NCBI GenBank assembly: GCA_963733095.1
Contig: CAVTBV010000008.1
Location: forward strand, 1 to 64,000
Length of the DNA: 64,000 bases
DNA from: Candidatus Bathyarchaeota archaeon
GTDB lineage: Archaea > Thermoproteota > Bathyarchaeia > Bathyarchaeales > Bathycorpusculaceae
Reading direction: 5' to 3'
Part shown: positions 41,770 to 52,135 of the stretch, piece by piece
Layout: every line of letters begins with the position of its first letter
How positions within the stretch are numbered: position 1 is the first letter of the stretch
Translations under genes and position numbers: made by a program
Notes under the pieces: model-generated
Databases searched by the model: none
The model's input: the letters and a program-made list of their open reading frames with translations, nothing else
Told to the model about the DNA's origin: nothing

Positions 41770-43626
41770 GTGGCGTTAACCAGCAACTCTGATTTTTACG
41801 TCTCGATTCAAGACGCTGGCATCAATCGGCTTGTTCGGCATGTTATGTGGAAAAGGCCTTCTCTTTTTAACTATGGAACTTCGTTTGTTGCTTCTAACCC
41901 TCATCTTCTATGCCAAAATATCGATGTCGCGCCAGAGGTTCTGCAGGCTGGAAACCCCCTTGTTACAGTTATAGATTCTTTACCGATCATTGGAACATCG
42001 TTAGCACTAAACTACGCAATACAGCTCACAAAGGGAGAACTTGATTTTCATCCAGGAAATATCTTTACTCTTCCAAACGAATTAAATCCGCCATTAGGAA
42101 AACAGCGTCTTGGCGTTCATTTCCAAGTTTGCGCAGGCTTAGGCTGCCCCCCAGCCATTGGTCTTCCCACACCAGGCAAACCTTCTGTAAGAGTTCCCTC
42201 AATCGCCAATTTAACCAGGTTATCTGCAAACGACATATCCGTTTCTAAGACGGGCGGAATTTTTAATCCAAATGGCGGAGAAGTCGTTTTGCCATCACAA
42301 CAATTAGACTGTTTTTGCCTTGACTTATACGCTACGGGGGGCTCAAAAACAACGGGGTCTGTGGGAAATCAACAGATTCAGCCATTTGTGGACGGCATAG
42401 ACATCGTAGATATCGAGCCAGATCCAATAGAAAACATGATAGAATGCTACGCACTACTTGCTTTGAACCAAGGAATCCTCCCAAGTATCGGTCAGCTTAT
42501 TTCAAAATTCGCCTTTAACAATCCACTCCCGCCAGAATTGGGGACCCTTATTTTTTCTGCATCAACAACTGTTCCTAATAATCCCGCGATTGAAGACAAT
42601 CAACTCAAAGCCTTCATCAATTTAGACAACATAGTCCTTAACCTCAACATTCCCCCAACGATTTGCCAATCAAGCGGAGGGGGAAGCGGGGGTGGCGGCG
42701 GAGGCGGAGGAACCGTAACAAGGACCACTCGAAGCAGAACACGAACAGATACATTCGATTTAACCGCAGCTATTTCTGCCAAAGCATTTGGAAAAATCTT
42801 TGGGGCAATAGTTAAAGGCTTTCACTTTTCCTGCGCTGACCAAGGTAGTTATGGACCGTTTTCTGCGAATTACGATGTAGAGGCACATCTAGAAGGCGGA
42901 TCAATTCAATTGCGAAATAACGAAACCATCGAAGTCTCCGACTTAGAAGTGAAATGGGATACTTTGAGCCTAAATCTTTGCGTCGACATTCCTGAACAAT
43001 GTGTGGGCGGCGGCTGCCTTATTCCAAACCCATTTGATGGTTGCGTTCTTAGTGTGCCCAAAATATGCGTTTTCAGTGGCAACCCCGATTTCTGTTTACC
43101 GATAAATCTAAGCGGTCTGATTACTTCAGAGGTAACTTTTACTGCTGGTTTTAGGGTTTTCTACGGCATTGGCTCAGGTGTAACAAACAGATGGCAAATT
43201 GTAATAGTGCCCGAAATGCCTATTGATCTGCAAATAATCGACGTGGCTGATACGGTAGGTGACCTTTTCAAAAATCTTTTTGATTCAGCAATTGATGGAC
43301 TATTAGGCGGTCTCCCCGATTGGGCAAAAGACTTGTTGAAGGGCATTTTTGGTTCAATCGATGACATGATCCGATTCGTTCTTGACATTCCTGACGATAT
43401 AGCTGGCTGGCTTATGGATATCCTTACAAGCCTAGGGGTATTCGACGTTTTGCTATCGGGAGTCTATGATTTCTTAGCAAACAACTTACCCGCACTCGAA
43501 ATAGATGACCCCTTCAAAGCTTTAGACCAAGCCGGTCCGCTAATTCCGGTAATGGTTCCTATAGAGTTTATTGGAATTAAAATCAACTCAAACGAAATGA
43601 TTATTGAAGGAGATGTGGGGAACTAA
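41770..43626 (+). CDS. large Cys-containing two-domain hypothetical protein with poly-Gly linker
   Basis: 618-aa ORF with SD ggag; beta-rich halves joined by SSGGGSGGGGGGG. Confidence 0.8.
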   Translation: MALTSNSDFYVSIQDAGINRLVRHVMWKRPSLFNYGTSFVASNPHLLCQNIDVAPEVLQAGNPLVTVIDSLPIIGTSLALNYAIQLTKGELDFHPGNIFTLPNELNPPLGKQRLGVHFQVCAGLGCPPAIGLPTPGKPSVRVPSIANLTRLSANDISVSKTGGIFNPNGGEVVLPSQQLDCFCLDLYATGGSKTTGSVGNQQIQPFVDGIDIVDIEPDPIENMIECYALLALNQGILPSIGQLISKFAFNNPLPPELGTLIFSASTTVPNNPAIEDNQLKAFINLDNIVLNLNIPPTICQSSGGGSGGGGGGGGTVTRTTRSRTRTDTFDLTAAISAKAFGKIFGAIVKGFHFSCADQGSYGPFSANYDVEAHLEGGSIQLRNNETIEVSDLEVKWDTLSLNLCVDIPEQCVGGGCLIPNPFDGCVLSVPKICVFSGNPDFCLPINLSGLITSEVTFTAGFRVFYGIGSGVTNRWQIVIVPEMPIDLQIIDVADTVGDLFKNLFDSAIDGLLGGLPDWAKDLLKGIFGSIDDMIRFVLDIPDDIAGWLMDILTSLGVFDVLLSGVYDFLANNLPALEIDDPFKALDQAGPLIPVMVPIEFIGIKINSNEMIIEGDVGN

Positions 43627-43628
43627 AA

Positions 43629-44399
43629 ATGAAAGCCATACTTAATCCATTTGTTTTTTCTCAAGTAAACTTAGACAGCGCATCACTCACCATGCTGACT
43701 TCGGTCGTCCATAAGATCGCAGAGTCAGGAACATACGATGGCACAATTCAACGAGGATCAGACACGGTAGGCCGATTTAGATTGGCTGCTTCAGATTTAC
43801 CACCGGAAAAATGCGCAGACGAATCCAAAAATCAAGTCAATATCGACTTGAAAAGTTTGGATCTACCGGTAGCGGACCATATTGAAAGTCAATTGAAGAA
43901 TTGTTTCCAAGTCAAAACTGGAGGATACGTCGTATTTCATCTGTCAAATGGCGCTGGCGGCTACTCCGTCGAACTTCGAAAAACTGGAACCGAATGCGGG
44001 GGAAAAATAGTTTTTGACAGCCGAAAACTTAATGAAAACGACTATTTTGTTGCCACACCACTACGCCCAGGAATCTACAACATCTTAAACGTGGAAACAA
44101 AGGCAAAAGCAGAGTTAATTGTTGCTTATCCAGAAATCGGAAAAATACCTAAACAACCACAAGCAACAAAAGTTGAATGCAGCCAAAACGCAATAACGCC
44201 TGGAAAAACTAAAATCAACCCAACTGAGTCCTTATTGTTTAGTTTTATGGCATCTTCAAGAATAAAAATAGAGCTAGTCAAACCAGAAGATCGCCCTCGA
44301 GTGAACACACAAAAAAAGGAAACACAGCAATCTAAAAAACCATCGAAGAGTTTGGCTCCAAACCAGAAACCAATACGCCACCTGCGCATAAACGTCTGA
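43629..44399 (+). CDS. hypothetical beta-rich protein
   Basis: 256-aa ORF 2 bp after the 618-aa gene. Confidence 0.75.
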   Translation: MKAILNPFVFSQVNLDSASLTMLTSVVHKIAESGTYDGTIQRGSDTVGRFRLAASDLPPEKCADESKNQVNIDLKSLDLPVADHIESQLKNCFQVKTGGYVVFHLSNGAGGYSVELRKTGTECGGKIVFDSRKLNENDYFVATPLRPGIYNILNVETKAKAELIVAYPEIGKIPKQPQATKVECSQNAITPGKTKINPTESLLFSFMASSRIKIELVKPEDRPRVNTQKKETQQSKKPSKSLAPNQKPIRHLRINV

Positions 44400-44402
44400 A
44401 GC

Positions 44403-45494
44403 TTAACCACTTGGGGCTTTTCGGCCCACTTTACCTATTTCATACACAATCAAATGTGGATACTTCAGTAAAAATTTGTATAATTGAGCGTTCTCTTTTT
44501 TCAATTCAACACTTGGATCTGGCTCGTAGATATGTAATATTGCCATTTGGTTTTCGCTGAGCGCATTGGTCATTTCGCTAAGGGTAAACCAATGGTTAGG
44601 ATTATCCTTGTGCTTATGTTCTATCTTGTAACGTGGTAAACATCCGCGAAAATGGCCTCCATTTGAGAGGGCTATTCCTTTAGCAAGTTGACCAAAAAAG
44701 GGATGCGCCTCGATTATAAAGAATCTGCCTTGGTCTTTCAAAATTCTGTTAATTTTACTCAATGCTTGGCTGAATTCTTCATGGTTATGTTCCTTTCTGG
44801 AAAAGTCAAAACTCACAATGGTGTCTATCGCAACAACATAGTCAAACTCTTTAGGACGCAAATTTTCTGCAAATTCAAGAAAATCACGATGAAAAAACTC
44901 TACGTTACTAAGGCCTAACTTCTCCTTGAGTTCCTGTGCCTTAGAAATTAAAAATTTACTTTTATCTATTCCAATTACCTGTGCTCCACGTTGGGCCAAA
45001 ATGGCAGAATAAAATCCTGGTCCACATCCAAAGTCAAGGATTTTTTTTCCAGCTACATATTCTTTAGAAAAGAAATGGGTTACAAAATTGTGTACGTAAT
45101 GCTTGTAGTAGACTCTGTTTTTAGGTCGAATGTCAGAAACATCATCATAAAATTTCTTTTCAAACCAGTTTTCCATAATTGGTGGTTGCTCATTTTCTTC
45201 CAAAGCTTTACGAACTGCCTCGTTCATAGCTTTGTTGACTGCCTCAACGGCAATCTGATCAATGTTCTCGTCTATGCTTTTTTCGCCGATTACAGAAATT
45301 AACCATTCTTTGTACTCAGGTATCAATCTTTTTGCAGCTTCATACATTGTTGTTTGCAATTTCGCTAGAATTTCAAGATCCAAATTCGCAGCATTCAGAT
45401 TCTCCTTCGAGAATAGAGCAATAATTTTCCTCTTAGAAACAGTCTCTAGTGGCTTTTTGGAGGAAGTTTTGGGTGCTGATTTATTGTTTGACAA
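44403..45494 (-). CDS. class I SAM-dependent methyltransferase with N-terminal precursor-like domain
   Basis: ILDFGCGPG motif I, GIDKS, RILKDQG; residues ~1-101 align with the neighbouring precursor. Confidence 0.9.
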   Translation of the reverse strand: MSNNKSAPKTSSKKPLETVSKRKIIALFSKENLNAANLDLEILAKLQTTMYEAAKRLIPEYKEWLISVIGEKSIDENIDQIAVEAVNKAMNEAVRKALEENEQPPIMENWFEKKFYDDVSDIRPKNRVYYKHYVHNFVTHFFSKEYVAGKKILDFGCGPGFYSAILAQRGAQVIGIDKSKFLISKAQELKEKLGLSNVEFFHRDFLEFAENLRPKEFDYVVAIDTIVSFDFSRKEHNHEEFSQALSKINRILKDQGRFFIIEAHPFFGQLAKGIALSNGGHFRGCLPRYKIEHKHKDNPNHWFTLSEMTNALSENQMAILHIYEPDPSVELKKENAQLYKFLLKYPHLIVYEIGKVGRKAPSG

Positions 45495-45607
45495 AACAAT
45501 CGCTACTCCATTTTCATGAATTGGGAACTATTTATGTTTGTGAGGCATTGCAGATTTTAATTGAAGGAAATCCATATTGCGGATCGTACTGAAAAGTTCA
45601 GTAATGT

Positions 45608-47188
45608 TTAGTAAAACGGAACAATTATTTTTAAGGGATTATTTCTGGCTGTTTTTAACTTTCTTAGTCGTGCCCAGACTGAAGTTAAGATTTCATAACG
45701 ATTACTCTCTGGTCTGGGTGAATACACATAACTGTGGTTTAAGCCCATATTTCGCCTGATTGCTTCAATTCCATATTTTTGTGGATTTTGAGATATTTCT
45801 GAATCATGATAGACCCCAAAACGTGAAACATGTACCTGATCAATAAACTCATAATTCCGCTCTAAGAAATCAACAGACTGTTTGAAATCGCTTACAGTTT
45901 CTCCTGGAAAATCTACGATCATAAATGTTAGAACCCGAATTCCGCTTCTTGCAGTATTCCGAATCACCTTCTTAGCAGTGTCCAAATCATACCCTTTTTT
46001 CATTTTCTGCAATATTCTTTGAGACCCTGATTCTATGCCATACCACAAACCTATGCAACCTGCATTGCACATCTTTTCCAGCAACTTATTAGTCATTTCA
46101 GGGCGAACCCGAGCATTACCCATCCATTTTATTCCCATATCTTCTTCGATTAATAAATCACAGAATGTTTCTAGCGATTTTATATTACAATTTATAAAAC
46201 TGTCGTTGAAGCGAATGACAGACGTTCCATACTTTCCTTGCATACTTTTAATCTCGGATACAATGTCTTCGGGGGTTCGCATACGGCAAGTGTTACCCCA
46301 TAACCGTTTTTCAACACAAAAAACACAATTCCCAACACACCCTCTAGAGCCAACAACTGGCATTATAGGCATACCAAACTTATTCTGAGGATACTCACTC
46401 AATGGCAAATCATCATAAGAGGGAAAAGGCAAAGAATCAAGAGATTCCACTAATGGACGAGCCTCATTGGTAATGATTATATCTTCCGTGTTCCTGTAAG
46501 AGATTCCTTTGATTTCTTCAATTGACTCTAAACTACCGTCATACGAATTCGCAAGCTCAGAAATTGTGACCTCGCCTTCACCATGAACTACTGCATTAAT
46601 TTCGGGATAAAAAGAGAGAACTTCTTTCCAAGAGACGAATGCAGGTCCACCCAACACCGTCAAGATTCTGGGCAGACGTTTCTTCAATTTACGTGCAAGA
46701 AGAATACTCCACAACAATCCAATATGACTAATCACATGAAATCCCACAATACTTTGTTCTTTGAAAGCATGGGCAACTTCCAAAAACCAACTGTTACAAA
46801 TTTTCCAAACATCAGAGACAACTTCTAACCTTAATTCTTCATTAATCACGTGGCCGTACCCTAAATTTGAATAAGGATAACTTAATTGATCAGAGGCCTC
46901 TTTTAACATAATTTCTTCAAAAGTATCCTTGCTCTCGAACATAACAGAGCAAAGATGCGATTCAGGAATTTTTTCCTCTTTCACACTTACTCCACGATTG
47001 CTATGGCGTAAAATTTCTCTGGGCTTAATGCTTAATCCTTGGTGAAAAAGAGCTAAATTAAAAGATTTAATGTTCAAATCGAAGGTACTTACATTTTGAT
47101 TATTTGCCTTTAGGATACCTGTCAGGTAAGGGATTGCAGGATAAGGCACTAAGGAAGATACAGGGGGGATGCAAAAAAACACGGGCAT
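45608..47188 (-). CDS. B12-binding radical SAM enzyme (class B methylase-like)
   Basis: N-terminal cobalamin-binding domain (PP...P.AIPYL..IL, LGGP, GEGE), SRGCVGNCVFC, GIESGSQRIL..MKK. Confidence 0.9.
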   Translation of the reverse strand: MPVFFCIPPVSSLVPYPAIPYLTGILKANNQNVSTFDLNIKSFNLALFHQGLSIKPREILRHSNRGVSVKEEKIPESHLCSVMFESKDTFEEIMLKEASDQLSYPYSNLGYGHVINEELRLEVVSDVWKICNSWFLEVAHAFKEQSIVGFHVISHIGLLWSILLARKLKKRLPRILTVLGGPAFVSWKEVLSFYPEINAVVHGEGEVTISELANSYDGSLESIEEIKGISYRNTEDIIITNEARPLVESLDSLPFPSYDDLPLSEYPQNKFGMPIMPVVGSRGCVGNCVFCVEKRLWGNTCRMRTPEDIVSEIKSMQGKYGTSVIRFNDSFINCNIKSLETFCDLLIEEDMGIKWMGNARVRPEMTNKLLEKMCNAGCIGLWYGIESGSQRILQKMKKGYDLDTAKKVIRNTARSGIRVLTFMIVDFPGETVSDFKQSVDFLERNYEFIDQVHVSRFGVYHDSEISQNPQKYGIEAIRRNMGLNHSYVYSPRPESNRYEILTSVWARLRKLKTARNNPLKIIVPFY

Positions 47189-47351
47189 TTTGTAAATCCT
47201 TTAAATCATGTTTTGACGAAGCTTTCTGGTAACCCACTTTGGATAAGCGTGATGCTACATAATGAAACTAAGAATCATGATGCATTAATGTTATGACAAC
47301 AACTCTTATGGTCAATTACGCCCTTTTATTTGAGGGTTGAATTAAAGAACC

Positions 47352-47858
47352 TCAAACTCTACCTTGTTTCAAATTTTCTTTCAAAGCTTCACGAATTGCA
47401 ACATTCATAGCTTTGTTAACTGCCTGAGCAACCATGTCATCAATGTTCCTATTTGGTTGAGGACAATCGTTTCCACAAGAACTACATAAGGGCGTTGGAC
47501 AATCGTTTCCACAAGAACTACATAAGGGCGTTGGACAATCGTTTCCACAAGAACTACATAAGGGCGTTGGACAATCTTCAGCCACAACTCTTTCACCAAA
47601 AGAAGAATTCACCCACTGTTTGTATTCGGGCACCGTTTTTTCCACGACTTCATGAATTGTTGATTGTAGTTTCGCATATATTTCTGGATCTATTTTTTCA
47701 ATAGGGGGCATTTTTGCTAAAAGCGCATTTAGTCGTCTACTTTGCGCCCCAGTGAGTTTACTTTTTGAAACAACGGTGGTTAATTTCTTAGAAGCTATTT
47801 TAGCGGGTTTTTTATAATTAGCTTTTGTCCTTACTTTATTCTTTGGCAAAAAAATCAC
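47352..47858 (-). CDS. putative multi-core RiPP precursor, (CPTPLCSSCGND)x3
   Basis: 168-aa ORF between two radical SAM genes; all 10 Cys fall in the central repeat block. Confidence 0.8.
   Translation of the reverse strand: MIFLPKNKVRTKANYKKPAKIASKKLTTVVSKSKLTGAQSRRLNALLAKMPPIEKIDPEIYAKLQSTIHEVVEKTVPEYKQWVNSSFGERVVAEDCPTPLCSSCGNDCPTPLCSSCGNDCPTPLCSSCGNDCPQPNRNIDDMVAQAVNKAMNVAIREALKENLKQGRV
47461..47576. repeat. perfect 36-bp tandem repeat, 3.2 copies, in frame within the precursor
   Basis: ggacaatcgtttccacaagaactacataagggcgtt x3 + ggacaatc. Confidence 0.97.
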
Positions 47859-47998
47859 TAACTATTTATGATTTACCAATTATTTATGTTTATTGCACGG
47901 AACTGATTTAAGACTTATTTTTAAATAAGCCTGAGTCGATTCTACACTTTTATCAAAGATCAGCGTTGTTTGTCCATAGAGCTTTCGGTAATGGAAAT

Positions 47999-49456
47999 TT
48001 AGGTTGGTTTCTTTGCTCTCTTTTTCACCCGTCTTCGCAACTTTTTCGATTTTAGGTTTGTAGATTGCATCAGGAAATTATAAGTTAGCAAAAGTTTGAG
48101 GATTTCATTTTGAAAAGTGCAAAAATAGTTCTCTTTTATTCCAATTTTACCGGTCTTAATGTAGACATCATAGGCACAAGCTCCGCCGCAGATCCCAAGG
48201 GCAGGACAAAGCATACAATCTTTATTCTTCAGGGTGCCAAGTTCTAGCCACTCGTAAAACAATGGTTCTTCTTGAACATTCAAATCGTCTTTTACTGGAA
48301 TTTGATGTTTTCCGGAAGGATAAAACGCTTGGCAAGGCCCAACAGTTCCAGCAGGTGAAAAGAATATTTGCTGACCAAATGCAGGACAATCATACACATG
48401 AAATGCTTCCTTGAAAAAATAGCTTGCTCTTCGCACATCTATGCGATCTTCAAACATCTGAAGTTCTTTAGCTTTTAAGTATGCTCTAAAAAGATGCTGA
48501 GCTAGTTGTTTTGGGTCGGGAACTTCATATTCGGTCGGTTCCTTTAGTCTGGTTAACAAATTGAAACTTAGGCTTCTAACTCCCAATTTATGGACAAATT
48601 CAACTATTTCCTCCGCGTATTCGTAGTTCTGTTTCGTAATTGTACATGATATCCCAACATTTACTCCAAGTTCTTTCAAGAGAGCCAACGCTTTAAGTGC
48701 TGAATAAAATGTTTCTTTTCCGCCAGTAAAAACACGGTTTTTGTCTATGCTGGCCCATCCGTCTAGTGATAAACCAACACCAACATTGTGTTGCTTGAGT
48801 TTTCTAGCCAAGTCATCTGTTAATAAACTCCCGTTAGTAACGCAAGAAAACACGAATTTGTTTTTGGATGCTTGCTCCAGTTTTTCAATAATGTAGAAAA
48901 CGATTTCGCTGTTGCTAAGTGGTTCTCCTCCATAAAATGTGACTCTGTATTCTTGAACTTGTCTTGCTGCGTTAATTAGAACTTTTATGACTTTGTCCGC
49001 CAAATCCTTTGACATTGAAATGCTCGGTCCTTCAAGAGAGTTTTCAATGAAGCAGTAACCGCATCTGAAGTTGCAGTAGTCAGTCACTAAAATGTACGAC
49101 AGATTTGGCACGGGTTTTTTTCTGAGTACGCTATCTGCAATGTTATTAAACACTTTTTCTTGATCAAAGCCGCGAGGCACTATGAATTTCAACTTAATTA
49201 GCTTCTTGACGTAGCCACTTTGGTGCCCCTTGCTTAGATCTGTTAAAACCTTAACATACTCATCATTGGACAAGTATACTTTTTTCAGAGTTAAAGAATT
49301 AAAAAGACACTTCGTCGTTTCATCTATGTTAAACAGATGGATGAACGGCGAAAGAATTAACTGGGATGGTTCTTCACAGCTCGATTGTTTACCGGGATTA
49401 CTTTTGTTCAAAAGAGCATTAACCTTCGCGACTTGTTTTTTGCTAAATTTATGCAA
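47999..49456 (-). CDS. radical SAM/SPASM peptide maturase
   Basis: CNFRCGYC, FYGGEP, TNG, SLDG; SPASM C-x17-C...CMLC-x5-C-x3-C...C; RRE-like N-domain (LFNSLT...LIKLKFIV). Confidence 0.9.
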   Translation of the reverse strand: MHKFSKKQVAKVNALLNKSNPGKQSSCEEPSQLILSPFIHLFNIDETTKCLFNSLTLKKVYLSNDEYVKVLTDLSKGHQSGYVKKLIKLKFIVPRGFDQEKVFNNIADSVLRKKPVPNLSYILVTDYCNFRCGYCFIENSLEGPSISMSKDLADKVIKVLINAARQVQEYRVTFYGGEPLSNSEIVFYIIEKLEQASKNKFVFSCVTNGSLLTDDLARKLKQHNVGVGLSLDGWASIDKNRVFTGGKETFYSALKALALLKELGVNVGISCTITKQNYEYAEEIVEFVHKLGVRSLSFNLLTRLKEPTEYEVPDPKQLAQHLFRAYLKAKELQMFEDRIDVRRASYFFKEAFHVYDCPAFGQQIFFSPAGTVGPCQAFYPSGKHQIPVKDDLNVQEEPLFYEWLELGTLKNKDCMLCPALGICGGACAYDVYIKTGKIGIKENYFCTFQNEILKLLLTYNFLMQSTNLKSKKLRRRVKKRAKKPT

Positions 49457-49971: not shown

Positions 49972-50400
49972 CTATTTGGGGGGCAAACATACCGTAAAAG
50001 TTGTGCTCTTCCCTTCTTGGCTTTCAAAAGTTACTGTTCCCCCTAAACCTTCAGTCATGCGTTTAATCACTGCTAATCCGAAACCTTGACCTTTAGCTTT
50101 GGTTGTGAACATTGGCGTAAACATCTTACCTTAAATGGCTTTGATATGCCTCCTCCGGTATCCTTGACATCTATCACGACATCACTTGCTTTTTTGTAAG
50201 CCTTTATGACAATTTCACCGCCATTAGGCATCGCTTGAACAGCGTTATTAACCAAATTGACCATAATGCGTTTTATGAAAGCAGAGTCAGTATAACCTTT
50301 TCAGCCGCAACTTCAACTTTAACGTTTACTTTAACATTTTCGGGCAAACCGTTCTTTGCCAATAAGTCTTCAACTAAGAGTTTCAGATCAACTTCTTCTT
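49972..50400 (-). pseudogene. frameshifted histidine kinase HATPase_c remnant
   Basis: NNAVQAMPNGG, DTGGGI and GQGFGLAVIKRM lie in different frames. Confidence 0.85.
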
Positions 50401-50401
50401 A

Positions 50402-50501
50402 CATCTGTTTGAAAGTTGCTGGTTGTACTTCAAGCTGCCTAGCAACCAGCGGCTAACCCAGAAATTCCTGCGCCAATTACTATGATACGTTGTTGCATCA
50501 T
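50402..50501 (-). pseudogene. N-terminal stub of an FAD-dependent oxidoreductase
   Basis: MMQQRIIVIGAGISGLAAGC* (GxGxxG dinucleotide-binding motif), then stops; joined directly to the kinase remnant. Confidence 0.6.
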
Positions 50502-50654
50502 TGATTCAAATTGCCAAATATTAGAGCATTTCACACAACAATTGGCCACATCTCAATTAGAAAGACGGTACCCGCTCAAATCAACTCTACAGTCAAGAAA
50601 AAAATGAAAAACGGAAAATTCATCTAGAACGCGTTGACTTTTAGTTCTGAGTTA

Positions 50655-50978
50655 CTATCGCGGAGTATTGACTGCTGTTTTTCTTTTTGATTTTTCTATT
50701 ATCTCACAGATGCGGCAGGCGGCGTCATCGAGTGTCTTTTTGAGCTGCTTCATGTCCTCTTCGACTGCGTCGCGGTTTTCCAAAAGTGGGTAGACACTGA
50801 GATGGATCAAGTCGAAAGTTGCCTTAATGTCAATTTTTCCTGTTCTTTTTTGATCCATGACTGATTTCATTATTTTTTCTCTTTTGGCAATTTCCTCAAT
50901 CTTTAACCTTGGTTTATCGCTACTTAGACTTCTGCTCATTACATTACCACCTCTATCTCTGGAATTTTCATCCCACAC
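50655..50978 (-). CDS. small helical hypothetical protein (likely start MSRS at 50939)
   Basis: Start overlaps the stop of the 398-aa gene. Confidence 0.6.
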   Translation of the reverse strand: MWDENSRDRGGNVMSRSLSSDKPRLKIEEIAKREKIMKSVMDQKRTGKIDIKATFDLIHLSVYPLLENRDAVEEDMKQLKKTLDDAACRICEIIEKSKRKTAVNTPR

Positions 50979-52135
50979 AGGTTTAATCCCTTAATTTTAA
51001 TACCTTTTAATACCAAGCTTAGGTCAAGCTTGTCGGTGATTGCTGAGTCAGTTGTAACTGTGCCGGATAAGTTTGAAAACTCCAAGCCGCCCTTGACCCT
51101 CATCACCATTTTGCTGACGTTGAGAGTTAATACGCCGGTTATATGGGCTCTATCTGCGTCACCAATGAGGGTAACACCTGGTCCATACATCTGTTTTGAG
51201 GTGGATATGGTTAGAGCAGTCTTAGATTCTGCTTCAAAGGGCTGGGTAGTGACAGATGGAATTGTTACGTTTAAGGCTTTTATGTCTTTCATGGAAGCTT
51301 GAGGACTCGAAATTCCGTTTGAGTCCATTTCATCAATTGTTGTTTGGTCTGTTGCGATGTCGTTGGGTCCCGTTGGATTAGGGATTGGAAGGCACAGTCC
51401 AATGTTAATTCCAAGGGGAGTATCGATGGGGATGCTTGTACATTTCATCTGTATGTTGTCGGCTGAAACTTGGTCTATTGTGGTTTCCTTTATCGGGTCA
51501 GCAGTCATAGAGAATGGACCGATAGAGGTTAGAGTTGAAAACATGGAAAATTGACCAGCGCCGAACACGACGTCTCCAAGCGTATGTTTCTCCACATAAG
51601 AGTTAAAGTTGACTCCGCCCGATACGCCATAACAAAAGTCAGACCAACAGAGCGGCCATGGCAAGTCAATGTTTCCCGAAAACGTTGTGCTTATGGATAA
51701 TGTGATTTCTAGCTCTACGTTTTTGGCTTTGCATGATTCGTACTTGAATGTTCCGCTAAAATCTCTCAGCCGAAGGTTTGGAATGGATACTTCACCGATT
51801 TCTATCTCCGCAATCGAGAGCGGTCCCCCGATGCTGGAGGCGATTTTGGATTGGGGTATAACTGCTCGAGCTATCACCTTTTGTTCTCTTGGGCGACATC
51901 GCATTTGGGGCGGAGGGCAATCACAACCCTTTATCGGGATTTTGGGTAAATCGAAACATACTTTTTGTGTTTCTACCTCTATTTTAGGCAAGTTTAAGCA
52001 GACTTTTTGCGTTTCCACCTTCGGCAGTGGAATGCATATTTTCCCTTCTTGCGATGCAGTAGTTGCGTTAGTTGTTTCTACGGAAGTTACTTCTTTTACA
52101 TCTAAAACTTTTTTTGTTCTCGAGCTCTTGCTCAA
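50939..52135 (-). CDS. beta-rich Cys-containing hypothetical protein
   Basis: 398 aa; N-terminal triple repeat KICIPLPKV/KVCLNLPKI/KVCFDLPKI. Confidence 0.75.
   Translation of the reverse strand: MSKSSRTKKVLDVKEVTSVETTNATTASQEGKICIPLPKVETQKVCLNLPKIEVETQKVCFDLPKIPIKGCDCPPPQMRCRPREQKVIARAVIPQSKIASSIGGPLSIAEIEIGEVSIPNLRLRDFSGTFKYESCKAKNVELEITLSISTTFSGNIDLPWPLCWSDFCYGVSGGVNFNSYVEKHTLGDVVFGAGQFSMFSTLTSIGPFSMTADPIKETTIDQVSADNIQMKCTSIPIDTPLGINIGLCLPIPNPTGPNDIATDQTTIDEMDSNGISSPQASMKDIKALNVTIPSVTTQPFEAESKTALTISTSKQMYGPGVTLIGDADRAHITGVLTLNVSKMVMRVKGGLEFSNLSGTVTTDSAITDKLDLSLVLKGIKIKGLNLCGMKIPEIEVVM

Follow-up and report, generated by a model that had tools for sequence, protein, structure and literature searches.

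In this work, we describe a cassette of four genes, found in a 64,000-nucleotide window (the whole stretch of DNA analysed), which probably turns a small Cys-repeat protein into a methylated small protein or RiPP with thioether staples. This reading is drawn by analogy with known maturation systems, from which we also infer the thioether type, the linked sites and the methylation targets. The genes, all co-oriented, encode in this order a radical-SAM/SPASM enzyme, a 168-aa Cys-repeat protein (the precursor), a B12-type radical-SAM enzyme and a class I methyltransferase (MT). In the ORF list of the window, four minus-strand ORFs (Table 1) coincide exactly with the genes proposed in a previous sequence-only reading, and both ORF coordinates and domain matches agree with the order and orientation it gave. 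The (CPTPLCSSCGND)x3-CPQP motif it attributed to the 168-aa protein was also recovered, the translation being ...AED-(CPTPLCSSCGND)x3-CPQP..., and a 36-bp tandem array of 3.2 copies, with 100% matches and no indels, is found at positions 47461-47576. Its assignment of the host to the archaea is in keeping with the titles of 29 out of 30 related loci, which name Candidatus Bathyarchaeota.

Table 1. Features of the cassette within the window
Feature	Coordinates	Strand	Size or detail
Radical-SAM/SPASM enzyme, predicted cross-linking maturase	47999..49456	-	485 aa
Cys-repeat precursor, running from a basic tail through helices and the Cys block to a C-terminal helix	47352..47858	-	168 aa
Precursor residues 34-94	47577..47759	-	K-L-T-x-A-Q-x-x-R-L segment and, from the module shared with the MT, the first long helix
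Cys block, predicted modified core, precursor residues 95-136	47451..47576	-	D-(CPTPLCSSCGND)x3-CPQPN
Precursor residues 137-168, C-terminal helix ("follower")	47355..47450	-	remaining half of the helical module shared with the MT
Class B (B12-type) radical-SAM enzyme, predicted to act as a C-methylase or in another tailoring step	45608..47188	-	526 aa
MT, whole ORF	44403..45494	-	363 aa
MT N-terminal module, residues 1-102, core-less precursor paralogue ("fossil precursor")	45189..45494	-	
MT catalytic domain, residues ~103-363	44403..45188	-	class I SAM-methyltransferase

The arrangement is far beyond chance, since the family and its neighbourhood recur in 30 loci and co-occur phyletically. 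In 26 of the 30 fetched loci, a SPASM orthologue, or a remnant of it, lies directly upstream of the precursor on the same strand, and the order SPASM-precursor-B12-(second precursor)-MT is found in 20. Both B12 and MT genes are present in 20 of the 30, the MT only in 2, and other radical-SAM genes instead in 3; many related loci belong to assemblies with numerous frameshifts, and some "missing" genes may therefore be assembly errors. Five loci, four without a SPASM gene and one in which just a remnant of it is left (L007, L011, L015, L016 and L028), come from assemblies which hold a full cassette elsewhere. Within the genus, the precursor was detected in 22 of 120 genomes and the SPASM orthologue in the same 22; the MT domain (20 genomes) and the B12 enzyme (18 genomes) are all nested within this set. 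A class-wide sample yielded the cassette precursor in 3 of 401 genomes, all of this genus. The cassette is accessory and, in the searched genomes, confined to part of one Bathyarchaeia genus. Some genomes feature extra, unlinked precursor genes, and additional precursor copies come without extra enzymes. Inspection by eye suggested PIN-domain and transposase genes among the ORFs of the variable regions around the cassettes.

The proximity of a Cys-rich ORF to homologues of the enzymes, which the sequence-only reading had proposed to look for, was thus found at the level of both loci and genomes. Its four-gene unit holds as a conserved set, strongly supported by the recurrence of these genes, but not as an obligatory one: the B12 radical-SAM and MT genes are dispensable or replaceable tailoring genes.

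The precursor family includes at least 128 proteins (E<=0.01), 100-208 aa long, each containing 1-5 repeat units; no relative was found at a significant score in Pfam and PDB searches. Alignment of 71 units resulted in the consensus C-P-x-x-[LIV]-C-S-[SA]-C-x-N-[DQE], where P2 is kept in 70 units, N11 in 68 and D, Q or E at position 12 in 68; the invariance of the Cys residues is partly circular, as units were picked by a pattern requiring all three. Codon differences indicate that the units are under purifying selection: unit pairs identical in protein (loci L004, L005, L006, L008, L009 and L026) feature 93 synonymous vs 0 replacement differences, and the whole set of 52 pairs 257 vs 91. Outside the units, residues K34, T36, Q39, R42, P51, I53, E54, K55, P58, Y61, K63 and L64 are invariant or nearly so, conservation being 0.70-0.76 over residues 34-94 and 0.62 over residues 137-168. 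The K-L-T-x-A-Q-x-x-R-L segment is a candidate recognition sequence; its K-L-T-x-A-Q part is precursor-specific, being missing from the N-terminal domains of the MTs. AF2 modelling places helices at residues 37-49, 58-87 and 137-164 and leaves residues 95-136 disordered; because of the low confidence of the model (mean pLDDT 52.8, pTM 0.27), the resulting "hairpin" is suggested rather than demonstrated.

The same module is found at the N-terminus of the MT. The 363-aa protein matches Pfam Methyltransf_31 (1.5e-22), and its AF2 model features a Rossmann core (pLDDT about 90) preceded by an N-terminal module with helices at 40-69 and 78-101; Foldseek retrieved generic class I MTases, RiPP N-MTases CypM and BpumL among them. 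BLASTP aligns precursor and MT at 3e-16; the alignment leaves a gap of 43 residues at the position of the Cys block and brings the C-terminal helix region of the precursor onto MT residues 77-101. At the sequence level, the N-terminal ~100 residues of the MT are paralogous to the precursor. The module is kept in all 17 MT orthologues shown, 7 of which retain a N-D-C vestige at the insertion point. It occurs in two copies only, precursor and MT, in its own genome, and a profile search of 1.84 billion representatives gave 18 hits, the sole long one being a 367-aa MT. The long leader and the follower of the sequence-only reading do exist as flanks of the Cys block but not as independent parts; judging from the alignment, each makes up one half of a single helical module, paralogous to that of the MT, in which the Cys block is a loop insertion.

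Precursor leaders derived from protein domains are known in the NHLP and Nif11 families, and in engineered leader-fused RiPP enzymes a leader in cis can substitute for leader binding. As in these cases, a larger protein here contains a domain homologous to a precursor region; in contrast to them, a natural tailoring enzyme bears the entire core-less precursor scaffold, an arrangement of which no described example was found in literature searches aimed at other subjects. When the precursor and the MT N-module were modelled as a complex, the median score was 0.41 (runs 0.02, 0.41 and 0.45; best of 3 controls 0.01), with at least 9% of contacts shared between runs and a partner pLDDT of at least 41. 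In the calibration set, 58 of 80 solved complexes reached the mark applied, as did 2 of 110 mismatched pairs; at scores up to 0.60, it was reached by just 7 of those 80 and by both mismatches, a calibration by which such predictions are more often wrong than right unless pairing is likely beforehand. The prediction lends weak support to this pairing.

The two conserved flanks bear on the fate of the product. In a canonical multi-core RiPP pathway, the units would be cross-linked, methylated, cut out by unlinked peptidases and exported as bioactive (antimicrobial or signalling) peptides. Near-identical units in copy numbers from 1 to 5 would fit this scheme, as would the patchy, accessory distribution of the cassette, its GC content (0.37, below the 0.40-0.44 of the surroundings), its location in variable regions with putative PIN-domain and transposase ORFs and the extra unlinked precursor genes, as in multi-precursor systems. 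Moreover, distant relatives of the SPASM enzyme (~30% identity) adjoin classical short, Cys-rich precursor peptides in L038, L039, L045, L046 and L047, among the 15 top-scoring loci examined. However, the flanks of the 30 loci show no recurrent protease, exporter or transporter, which leaves room for unlinked ones; the units follow one another directly, neither a spacer nor a recognisable cleavage motif lying between them, and the precursor has a Lys-rich N-terminus and no signal peptide. Conservation of the C-terminal helix, part of the same module as the N-terminal one, would be unexplained if the flanks were discarded. We consider this scheme unlikely as a whole, and a retained modified protein, judged from these sequence features, no less likely than the release of a peptide.

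The 485-aa enzyme matches Pfam Radical_SAM (1.8e-22) and Fer4_12, and SPASM peptide-maturase models cover it nearly full length, although the Pfam SPASM model gave no match at E<=0.01. Both the CX3CX2C motif (C128/132/135) and the seven-Cys SPASM pattern (C357, C375, C414, C417, C423, C427 and C446) are invariant in 19 out of 19 aligned sequences; as far as sequence conservation tells, all the radical-SAM/SPASM catalytic cluster motifs are intact. The RRE assumed in the sequence-only reading was not recognized: residues 1-120 have no Pfam match even at E<=10. The search against known maturase families, which the same reading had suggested, was run on NCBIfam and placed maturases that form thioethers or other cross-links in RiPPs (FibroRumin, PapB, CefB, QhpD, SCIFF and TIGR04463) on top, all scores falling far short of the curated cutoffs; function is therefore not transferable from any of them. 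Along with these matches, the short Cys-rich peptides next to distant SPASM relatives, mentioned above, speak for a maturase. The best-scoring model, the FibroRumin maturase (TIGR04136, 186.2 bits vs a cutoff of 400), aligns residues 36-454, N-terminal domain included, but no paper found in a literature search mentions this family, so that no chemistry can be transferred from it. CefB follows PapB in score, with 126 bits.

PapB (NF047865) links Cys to the Asp beta-carbon in C-x3-D motifs. It shares with our enzyme (138.8 bits vs a cutoff of 340) the radical-SAM/SPASM architecture and a substrate where an acidic acceptor follows the Cys by a few residues; its substrate PapA, however, is a short leader-core peptide, in contrast to a 168-aa protein with internal core and conserved C-terminal helix, and methylating enzymes are added here. 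The closest solved structure, 5wgg/5why (8.7e-22), belongs to CteB, which we take to be the SCIFF maturase; SCIFF (TIGR03974, 98.7 bits vs 425) also acts on a Cys-rich substrate, of a different precursor family. The name CteB for 5WHY is that used in the Crp paper (PMC13692751).

The closest precedent, described in 2026, is the Crp system of Methanococcus voltae (CrpA/CrpB/CrpC; PMC13692751). There, CrpC (TIGR04463) installs ranthionines in the CAVD, PCAGD, ACAGM and CPLVL motifs of CrpA, a Cys-repeat protein for which a C-X-X-Q/D motif is pointed out, and CrpA and CrpB have a common N-terminal module (PMC13692751). Both systems are archaeal and combine a seven-Cys SPASM enzyme with a protein substrate (a predicted one in ours) of at least 100 aa carrying tandem Cys motifs; C-x-N-[D/Q/E] and C-P-x-x-[L/I] recur here as counterparts of C-x-x-D/Q and CPLVL, a second protein (CrpB there, the MT here) carries the module of the substrate, and no protease or exporter is identified in either. 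In contrast, our SPASM enzyme scores 98.7 bits vs the TIGR04463 cutoff of 525, the repeat is 12 residues long, in 1-5 copies inside a helical module, instead of 17 residues in ten C-terminal copies, a B12 radical-SAM enzyme belongs to the cassette, and the host is a member of Bathyarchaeia rather than a methanogen. The statement of the sequence-only reading that it recognised neither core motif nor gene combination from a described class stands as to curated cutoffs and to the literature, where a search for the cassette or its core motif found nothing; as to its kind, the Crp system sets a precedent.

The SPASM enzyme might instead perform non-thioether chemistry (Cys-to-formylglycine conversion, C-C or C-O cross-links, epimerisation), with Cys residues acting in part as metal or cluster ligands. 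Anaerobic sulfatase maturases oxidise Cys to formylglycine in a C/S-x-P-x-R motif; their model (anSME) scores 108 bits and those of cyclophane and other cross-link maturases 84-98, not far below the thioether families, anSME structures are third and fourth among PDB matches, and no family cutoff decides the matter. This is nevertheless rather improbable, the top models being Cys-peptide maturases and the substrate having as its hallmark invariant Cys with D/Q/E further downstream, as does CrpA (PMC13692751), with neither the sulfatase motif nor, within the units, any of the aromatic residues needed for cyclophanes. We regard it as very improbable that the Cys-repeat protein stays unmodified and serves the two radical-SAM enzymes, acting on another molecule, as an accessory that binds metal or Fe-S clusters (a metallothionein- or ferredoxin-like chaperone). 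For such a role, three regularly spaced Cys per 12 residues, two Fe-S enzymes in the cassette, a Cys block predicted disordered when metal-free and the mention of metal binding as a possible role of modified CrpA (PMC13692751) would be suitable, but not the strict adjacency and co-occurrence with a maturase-type enzyme, constraint on P2, N11 and D/Q/E12 as expected of a recognition or acceptor motif, precursor copies without additional enzymes, or a substrate-like module on the MT.

The 526-aa enzyme matches Pfam Radical_SAM (6.3e-18) and falls below the cutoff for B12-binding (20.8 vs 32.1 bits), all of its best NCBIfam matches being B12-radical-SAM families; C284/288/291 are invariant in 15 out of 15 aligned sequences. 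It shares class B architecture with RiPP C-methyltransferases such as ApyD (NF050148, 168 bits vs a cutoff of 750) and TIGR03975 (137 vs 282), both sub-cutoff. ApyD beta-methylates a Tyr of a RiPP precursor, Tyr being absent from our units, in a cluster which includes a class I MT, and B12 radical-SAM enzymes also perform non-methylation chemistry (PMC10635010).

In the stapled-protein reading, the substrate would consist of a Lys-rich tail, the K-L-T-x-A-Q-x-x-R-L segment and a helical hairpin with 1-5 tandem 12-residue units in its loop. The SPASM enzyme, with one radical-SAM and two auxiliary [4Fe-4S] clusters, would bind it through its N-terminal domain and convert the Cys thiols of each unit to intramolecular thioethers (-2 Da each), most likely ranthionine-type side-chain links that join a Cys to a residue 3-4 positions further on: from C9 to D/Q/E12 and possibly from C1 to L/I5. 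The B12 enzyme would then place methyl group(s) onto unactivated carbon and the MT would methylate O, N or S. For this, the MT would be recruited through its fossil-precursor domain, which may pair with the substrate helices or occupy the same docking site on the radical-SAM enzymes. As the cassette brings no peptidase or exporter with it and the helices on both sides of the Cys block are conserved, the product would probably be kept as a small stapled protein, in the manner of CrpA, and not be released as a peptide. In its hosts, uncultured soil and sediment archaea of one genus, such a protein might, as a guess, serve in metal handling or as a stabilised structural or redox element.

The four-gene cassette of the window is real, well supported and undescribed. 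Its minus-strand ORFs, collected in the feature table below, end exactly where the sequence-only reading had placed them, and the labels it gave to the three enzymes (SPASM radical SAM, B12-type radical SAM and class I methyltransferase, here MT) agree with the domain searches. The comparison of the SPASM protein with maturase families, proposed at the same time, showed that all NCBIfam scores of the radical-SAM proteins fall below the curated cutoffs, and therefore no named family can be assigned.

Features of the window and of related loci (L-numbered, on other contigs) discussed in the text
Feature	Location	Strand	Basis
SPASM radical-SAM enzyme, 485 aa	window 47999-49456	minus	ORF list, Pfam, NCBIfam
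Cys-repeat precursor, 168 aa	window 47352-47858	minus	ORF list
36-bp tandem repeat (in the Cys block)	window 47461-47576		
B12-type radical-SAM enzyme, 526 aa	window 45608-47188	minus	ORF list, Pfam, NCBIfam
Class I SAM methyltransferase (MT), 363 aa	window 44403-45494	minus	ORF list, Pfam
Two adjoining proteins, 618 and 256 aa	window 41770-44399	plus	
Gene remnants directly upstream of the cassette	window 49972-50398	minus	
Gene remnants directly upstream of the cassette	window 50439-50552	minus	
107-aa ORF	window 50655-50978	minus	
398-aa protein	window 50939-52135	minus	
Variant cassette	L013:1344-5088		
Variant cassette	L030:8266-14395		
Variant cassette	L033:6095-11912		
Split MT N-terminal module	L008:12291-13485		
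Split MT N-terminal module	L009:12538-13723		

The SPASM enzyme matches Pfam Radical_SAM (E 1.8e-22), and the NCBIfam models of SPASM peptide maturases align over nearly its full length, with scores of 186.2 bits for the FibroRumin maturase (TIGR04136; cutoff 400), 138.8 for PapB (NF047865; cutoff 340), and 98.7 for both the Crp-type TIGR04463 (cutoff 525) and the SCIFF maturase (TIGR03974; cutoff 425); CefB (126 bits), anSME (108) and QhpD (106) are also below their cutoffs. The nearest curated relatives are thus maturases that cross-link Cys peptides, a homology from which we infer the probable role of the enzyme. Its CX3CX2C motif (C128/C132/C135) is kept in 19 out of 19 aligned sequences, in all of which seven SPASM cysteines (C357, C375, C414, C417, C423, C427 and C446) are also invariant; the Pfam SPASM model itself gave no match in the protein at E<=0.01. 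The best solved relative is 5wgg/5why, the latter named CteB in the Crp paper (PMC13692751). Pfam searches at E<=10 for an RRE/PqqD domain in residues 1-120, and for an RRE in residues 1-153 of the B12 enzyme, returned no match; an RRE in the SPASM enzyme is suggested only by the alignment of the maturase models, which runs from residue 36-46 (model positions 2-9) onward. A resemblance of the SPASM N-terminus to a conserved segment of the precursor, K-L-T-x-A-Q-x-x-R-L, was discarded as loose, orthologues keeping only a basic S-K-K-Q stretch.

In the B12 enzyme, Pfam recognizes the Radical_SAM domain (6.3e-18), along with a B12-binding domain at 20.8 bits, below the cutoff of 32.1. Its top NCBIfam matches are all B12 radical-SAM families, such as ApyD (168 bits, below cutoff), and the RiPP C-methyltransferase model TIGR03975 scores 137.3 bits against a cutoff of 281.85; the CX3CX2C motif (C284/288/291) is present in 15 out of 15 aligned sequences. 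The MT exceeds the Methyltransf_31 cutoff of 27 with 80.3 bits, and its Rossmann core is predicted by AlphaFold2 at a pLDDT of about 90; Foldseek relates the catalytic domain, at a probability of 1.00, to many generic class I MTases, among them CypM and BpumL, which are RiPP N-methyltransferases. A function in anti-phage defence was set aside, the PADLOC matches being generic only (the radical-SAM core to pVip, 73 bits, and the MT domain) and the precursor matchless.

The 168-aa precursor contains the array D-(CPTPLCSSCGND)x3-CPQP, encoded by a perfectly matching (100%) 36-bp tandem repeat of 3.2 copies. The protein is a member of an unannotated family of at least 128 proteins (E<=0.01), 100-208 aa long and carrying 1-5 units; the only two source-given names that include a taxon are both Candidatus Bathyarchaeia. 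No significant relative was found in Pfam or PDB, a Protein Atlas search gave nothing usable, and an exhaustive comparison of the family profile with 1.84 billion cluster representatives produced 18 matches only. Family members share four parts: a Lys-rich tail, the K-L-T-x-A-Q-x-x-R-L segment, a long helix with the pattern …P-x-x-Y-A-K-L-Q…P-E-Y-x-x-W, and the Cys block (1-5 units) with another conserved helix after it. Conservation is 0.76 and 0.62 in the helices versus 0.82 in the Cys block. AlphaFold2, run on the family alignment, predicts helices at 37-49, 58-87 and 137-164, with pLDDT values of about 60-72, and leaves the Cys block disordered; the overall confidence is low (pLDDT 52.8, pTM 0.27).

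The 71 units from the fetched loci follow the consensus C-P-[TV]-[EPQ]-[LIV]-C-S-[SA]-C-[GS]-N-[DQE], with P2 in 70, N11 in 68 and D, Q or E at position 12 in 68, where a D-to-Q swap is tolerated; the invariance of the cysteines is circular, the units having been picked by a pattern requiring three of them. Codon comparisons indicate that the units are under purifying selection: six genes with protein-identical units (L004, L005, L006, L008, L009 and L026) show 93 synonymous versus 0 replacement differences, and the 52 within-gene unit pairs of all genes show 257 versus 91. Units identical also in DNA are found in the window's array, so that this array was expanded or homogenised recently, and otherwise in L019 only. 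A look-up of public sequencing data listed four DNA metagenome runs, from wetland and freshwater sediment, and no RNA run; the DNA runs gave short contigs of about 2-6 depth, none of which spans the 36-bp repeat.

The organization of the precursor is clarified by the MT. By BLASTP, precursor residues 13-162 align with MT residues 2-101 (E 3e-16) with one 43-residue gap, which falls exactly at the Cys block; the N-terminal module of the MT is, in other words, a core-less "fossil" copy of the precursor, devoid of the precursor-specific K-L-T-x-A-Q segment. These two are the only copies of the module in the window's genome. It is kept in 17 out of 17 MT orthologues shown, and in 7 of them the insertion point still reads N-D-C, as does the junction before the first unit in precursors. 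AlphaFold2 predicts it as a helical hairpin (40-69 and 78-101, pLDDT 55-63), followed by a low-confidence linker. The alignment, the conservation of the MT module and the predicted hairpin therefore replace the earlier picture of a core between a separate leader and follower: these form a single module in two halves, with the Cys units inserted in its loop.

Complex prediction for the MT module and the precursor gave a median score of 0.41 (runs 0.02, 0.41 and 0.45), the best of three controls being 0.01; in the calibration, 58 of 80 solved complexes reached the mark, as did 2 of 110 mismatched pairs; both mismatches, but only 7 of the 80 solved complexes, did so with a score <=0.60. The runs agreed on at least 9% of contacts, with a partner pLDDT of at least 41. 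Such a score may be taken as no more than a hint that the module pairs with the precursor. In two loci, L008 and L009, a frameshift located precisely at the vestigial core breaks the module into a "leader-half" ORF of 115-137 aa and an MT starting at the second helix; the split could be genuine or a common assembly error, many frameshifts being present in both assemblies.

The scan of genome contigs identified 30 loci in 20 assemblies, whose architectures are reported in the table below.

Gene order at the 30 loci carrying the precursor family
Architecture	Loci	Number
SPASM-precursor-B12-MT	L004, L005, L006, L008, L009, L012, L014, L020, L025, L026, L027, L029	12
SPASM-precursor-B12-precursor-MT	L017, L018, L019, L021, L022, L023, L024, L032	8
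SPASM-precursor-MT	L010, L031	2
SPASM-precursor, other radical-SAM genes nearby	L013, L030, L033	3
SPASM remnant and precursor	L007	1
Precursor alone	L011, L015, L016, L028	4

The proposal of a RiPP-like system depended on a Cys-rich ORF next to the SPASM homologues, and this is what is found in 26 of the 30 loci. An intact SPASM gene is absent at five loci, the assemblies of which all hold a full cassette elsewhere (L007 with L019, L011 with L009, L015 with L019, L016 with L008 and L028 with L020). Within the class, the precursor occurs in 3 of 401 sampled genomes, all of one genus; within this genus it occurs in 22 of 120 genomes, and the SPASM orthologue in the same 22. The MT catalytic domain (20 of 120) and the B12 enzyme (18 of 120, one of the four "absences" being a heavily frameshifted gene, in L006) are confined to subsets of the 22. 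SPASM enzyme and precursor are the invariant core of the cassette, and B12 enzyme and MT form one tailoring set out of two or more.

In the three variant cassettes, one or two extra radical-SAM/SPASM-like genes replace B12 enzyme and MT, and the precursor, of a longer subtype, is extended C-terminally by a Lys-rich stretch and has divergent units, for instance CPQPACWSCGTG. One of them, L013, lies on a 10.4-kb contig entitled Candidatus Sulfotelmatobacter, while the other 29 loci are entitled Candidatus Bathyarchaeota; its SPASM gene is 77% identical to that of the window, and the contig is probably a mis-binned archaeal one rather than a bacterial copy. Some genomes are multi-copy, as many as three complete cassettes, or four precursor loci, occurring in a single assembly (those behind L024/L025/L027 and behind L007/L015/L019/L030).

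Outside the cassette family, the SPASM enzyme has a sister group of at least 11 proteins, 36-48% identical to it, which was not found in 401 genomes of the class or 401 of the phylum; a cluster look-up supplied no names either. P0175, P0178, P0179, P0184 and P0185 of this group carry GNAT domains. Among relatives of 34-48% identity (these five and P0186) there are fusions with a C-terminal GNAT acetyltransferase domain (550-596 aa), for which neither hosts nor substrates were found in the searched genomes and contigs. A metagenome scan with the sister group recovered generic SPASM relatives only, <=35% identical to the query, with a precursor-like gene in 0 of 80 loci; among the 15 best-scoring loci inspected, several have a relative of about 30% identity adjoining short Cys-rich peptides.

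The cassette is an accessory, probably mobile unit. Its GC content is 0.37 (44-50 kb of the window) versus 0.40-0.44 around it, and gene remnants lie directly upstream: a histidine kinase in three out-of-frame ATPase-domain fragments (HATPase_c 4.5e-10 and 8.4e-07) and a short frame resembling the dinucleotide-binding motif at the N-terminus of an FAD enzyme. Remnants and low GC together suggest an insertion or rearrangement of the cassette at this site, and the lower GC with the variable context hints at mobility. Genes beyond the cassette are not conserved: ClpB adjoins it in two loci, the two genes that lie downstream in the window do so in one, and no protease or transporter family recurs in the flanks of the 30 loci. 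Recurrent flanking ORFs, as judged by eye, encode PIN-domain and transposase proteins; large proteins with a hydrophobic N-terminus also recur.

The two downstream proteins, Pfam-less and convergent with the MT gene, are a 618-aa protein containing a poly-Gly stretch and a 256-aa one; the pair recurs beside the cassette only in L029, where it lies at the SPASM end, and L018 has a distant relative of the larger protein. On the other side lies a Pfam-less 398-aa protein with an N-terminal triple repeat of the motif L-P-K-[IV]-E…T-Q-K-V-C; the 3' end of its gene overlaps the beginning of a 107-aa ORF. To the extent examined, the protein has no link with the cassette and is not conserved beside it at the 30 loci. 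Scans for tRNAs and Rfam families across the window gave no match, and a promoter and terminator scan found fewer sites than in shuffles, its models being bacterial and not applicable to archaea.

PapB-family ranthipeptide maturases form a thioether from the Cys sulfur to a side-chain (beta or gamma) carbon. By analogy, the cassette may act like the Crp, PapB and SCIFF SPASM thioether systems, though it lies outside every curated family because all cutoffs are missed. Closest in substrate is the Crp system of Methanococcus voltae, whose archaeal SPASM enzyme, CrpC, forms ranthionine thioethers on CrpA, a 28.8-kDa Cys-repeat protein, in the motifs CAVD, PCAGD, ACAGM and CPLVL; a C-X-X-Q/D motif and the position of the Cys before the acceptor are noted in the same paper (PMC13692751). 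Common to both are a protein-sized substrate (here 100-208 aa) and tandem Cys motifs, here C-x-N-[D/Q/E] in 68 of 71 units. Peculiar to the cassette are the internal repeat core within a helical module, with a variable number of units, the fusion of a tailoring MT to a core-less precursor copy, the B12 radical-SAM partner and the confinement to part of one Bathyarchaeia genus. The literature search, which covered article texts, found no paper on radical SAM RiPPs of Bathyarchaeia, on this cassette or on the motif CSSCGND, nor any mentioning FibroRumin. In a survey of RiPPs from archaea (PMC12144867), ranthipeptide and sactipeptide clusters are mentioned in bulk only, and relatives may be listed among the RS-associated Cys-rich proteins of Supplemental Data set 1 of the Crp paper (PMC13692751).

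The SPASM enzyme would link C9 to residue 12, and perhaps C1 to residue 5, by side-chain thioethers, with a loss of 2 Da each. This is predicted because the unit, with C-x-N-[D/Q/E] at positions 9-12 and C-P-x-x-[L/I/V] at positions 1-5, offers motifs of the CrpA type, and because of the maturase homology. The B12 enzyme would probably C-methylate, as does its best model, ApyD, which makes beta-methyl-tyrosine, other chemistry being also reported for the class in the same source (PMC10635010). The fossil module of the MT would probably bring it to the substrate or the enzyme complex, either pairing helix-to-helix with the precursor hairpin or docking on the radical-SAM enzymes where the precursor would. 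A folded scaffold would present the Cys units on its loop and would stay in the final mini-protein. A retained stapled small protein is favoured, not strongly, over a released peptide, because no peptidase or exporter is linked to the cassette and both helices are conserved. The full proposal, an MT that finds its substrate through the fossil copy, by paralogue pairing or docking and not by RRE-leader contact, and a scaffold kept in the stapled, methylated product, is advanced tentatively and is on balance rather unlikely.

Bathyarchaeia are abundant, uncultured archaea of sediment and soil, for which, to our knowledge, essentially no post-translational chemistry has been characterised. With four genes in about 5 kb and good support from comparative genomics, the cassette is open to a direct co-expression test, and it would widen the new field of radical-SAM thioethers on proteins rather than peptides (Crp, 2026). 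Two traits are unusual: a repeat core inserted in a folded helical module, with a copy number differing between genomes, and a tailoring enzyme carrying a decayed copy of its substrate, a natural experiment on substrate recognition by RiPP enzymes. Were the product a released peptide only, the cassette would still define a new archaeal RiPP family; if paralogue recognition is true, it would represent a new recognition principle for RiPP-like pathways, together with a new class of modified proteins in archaea.
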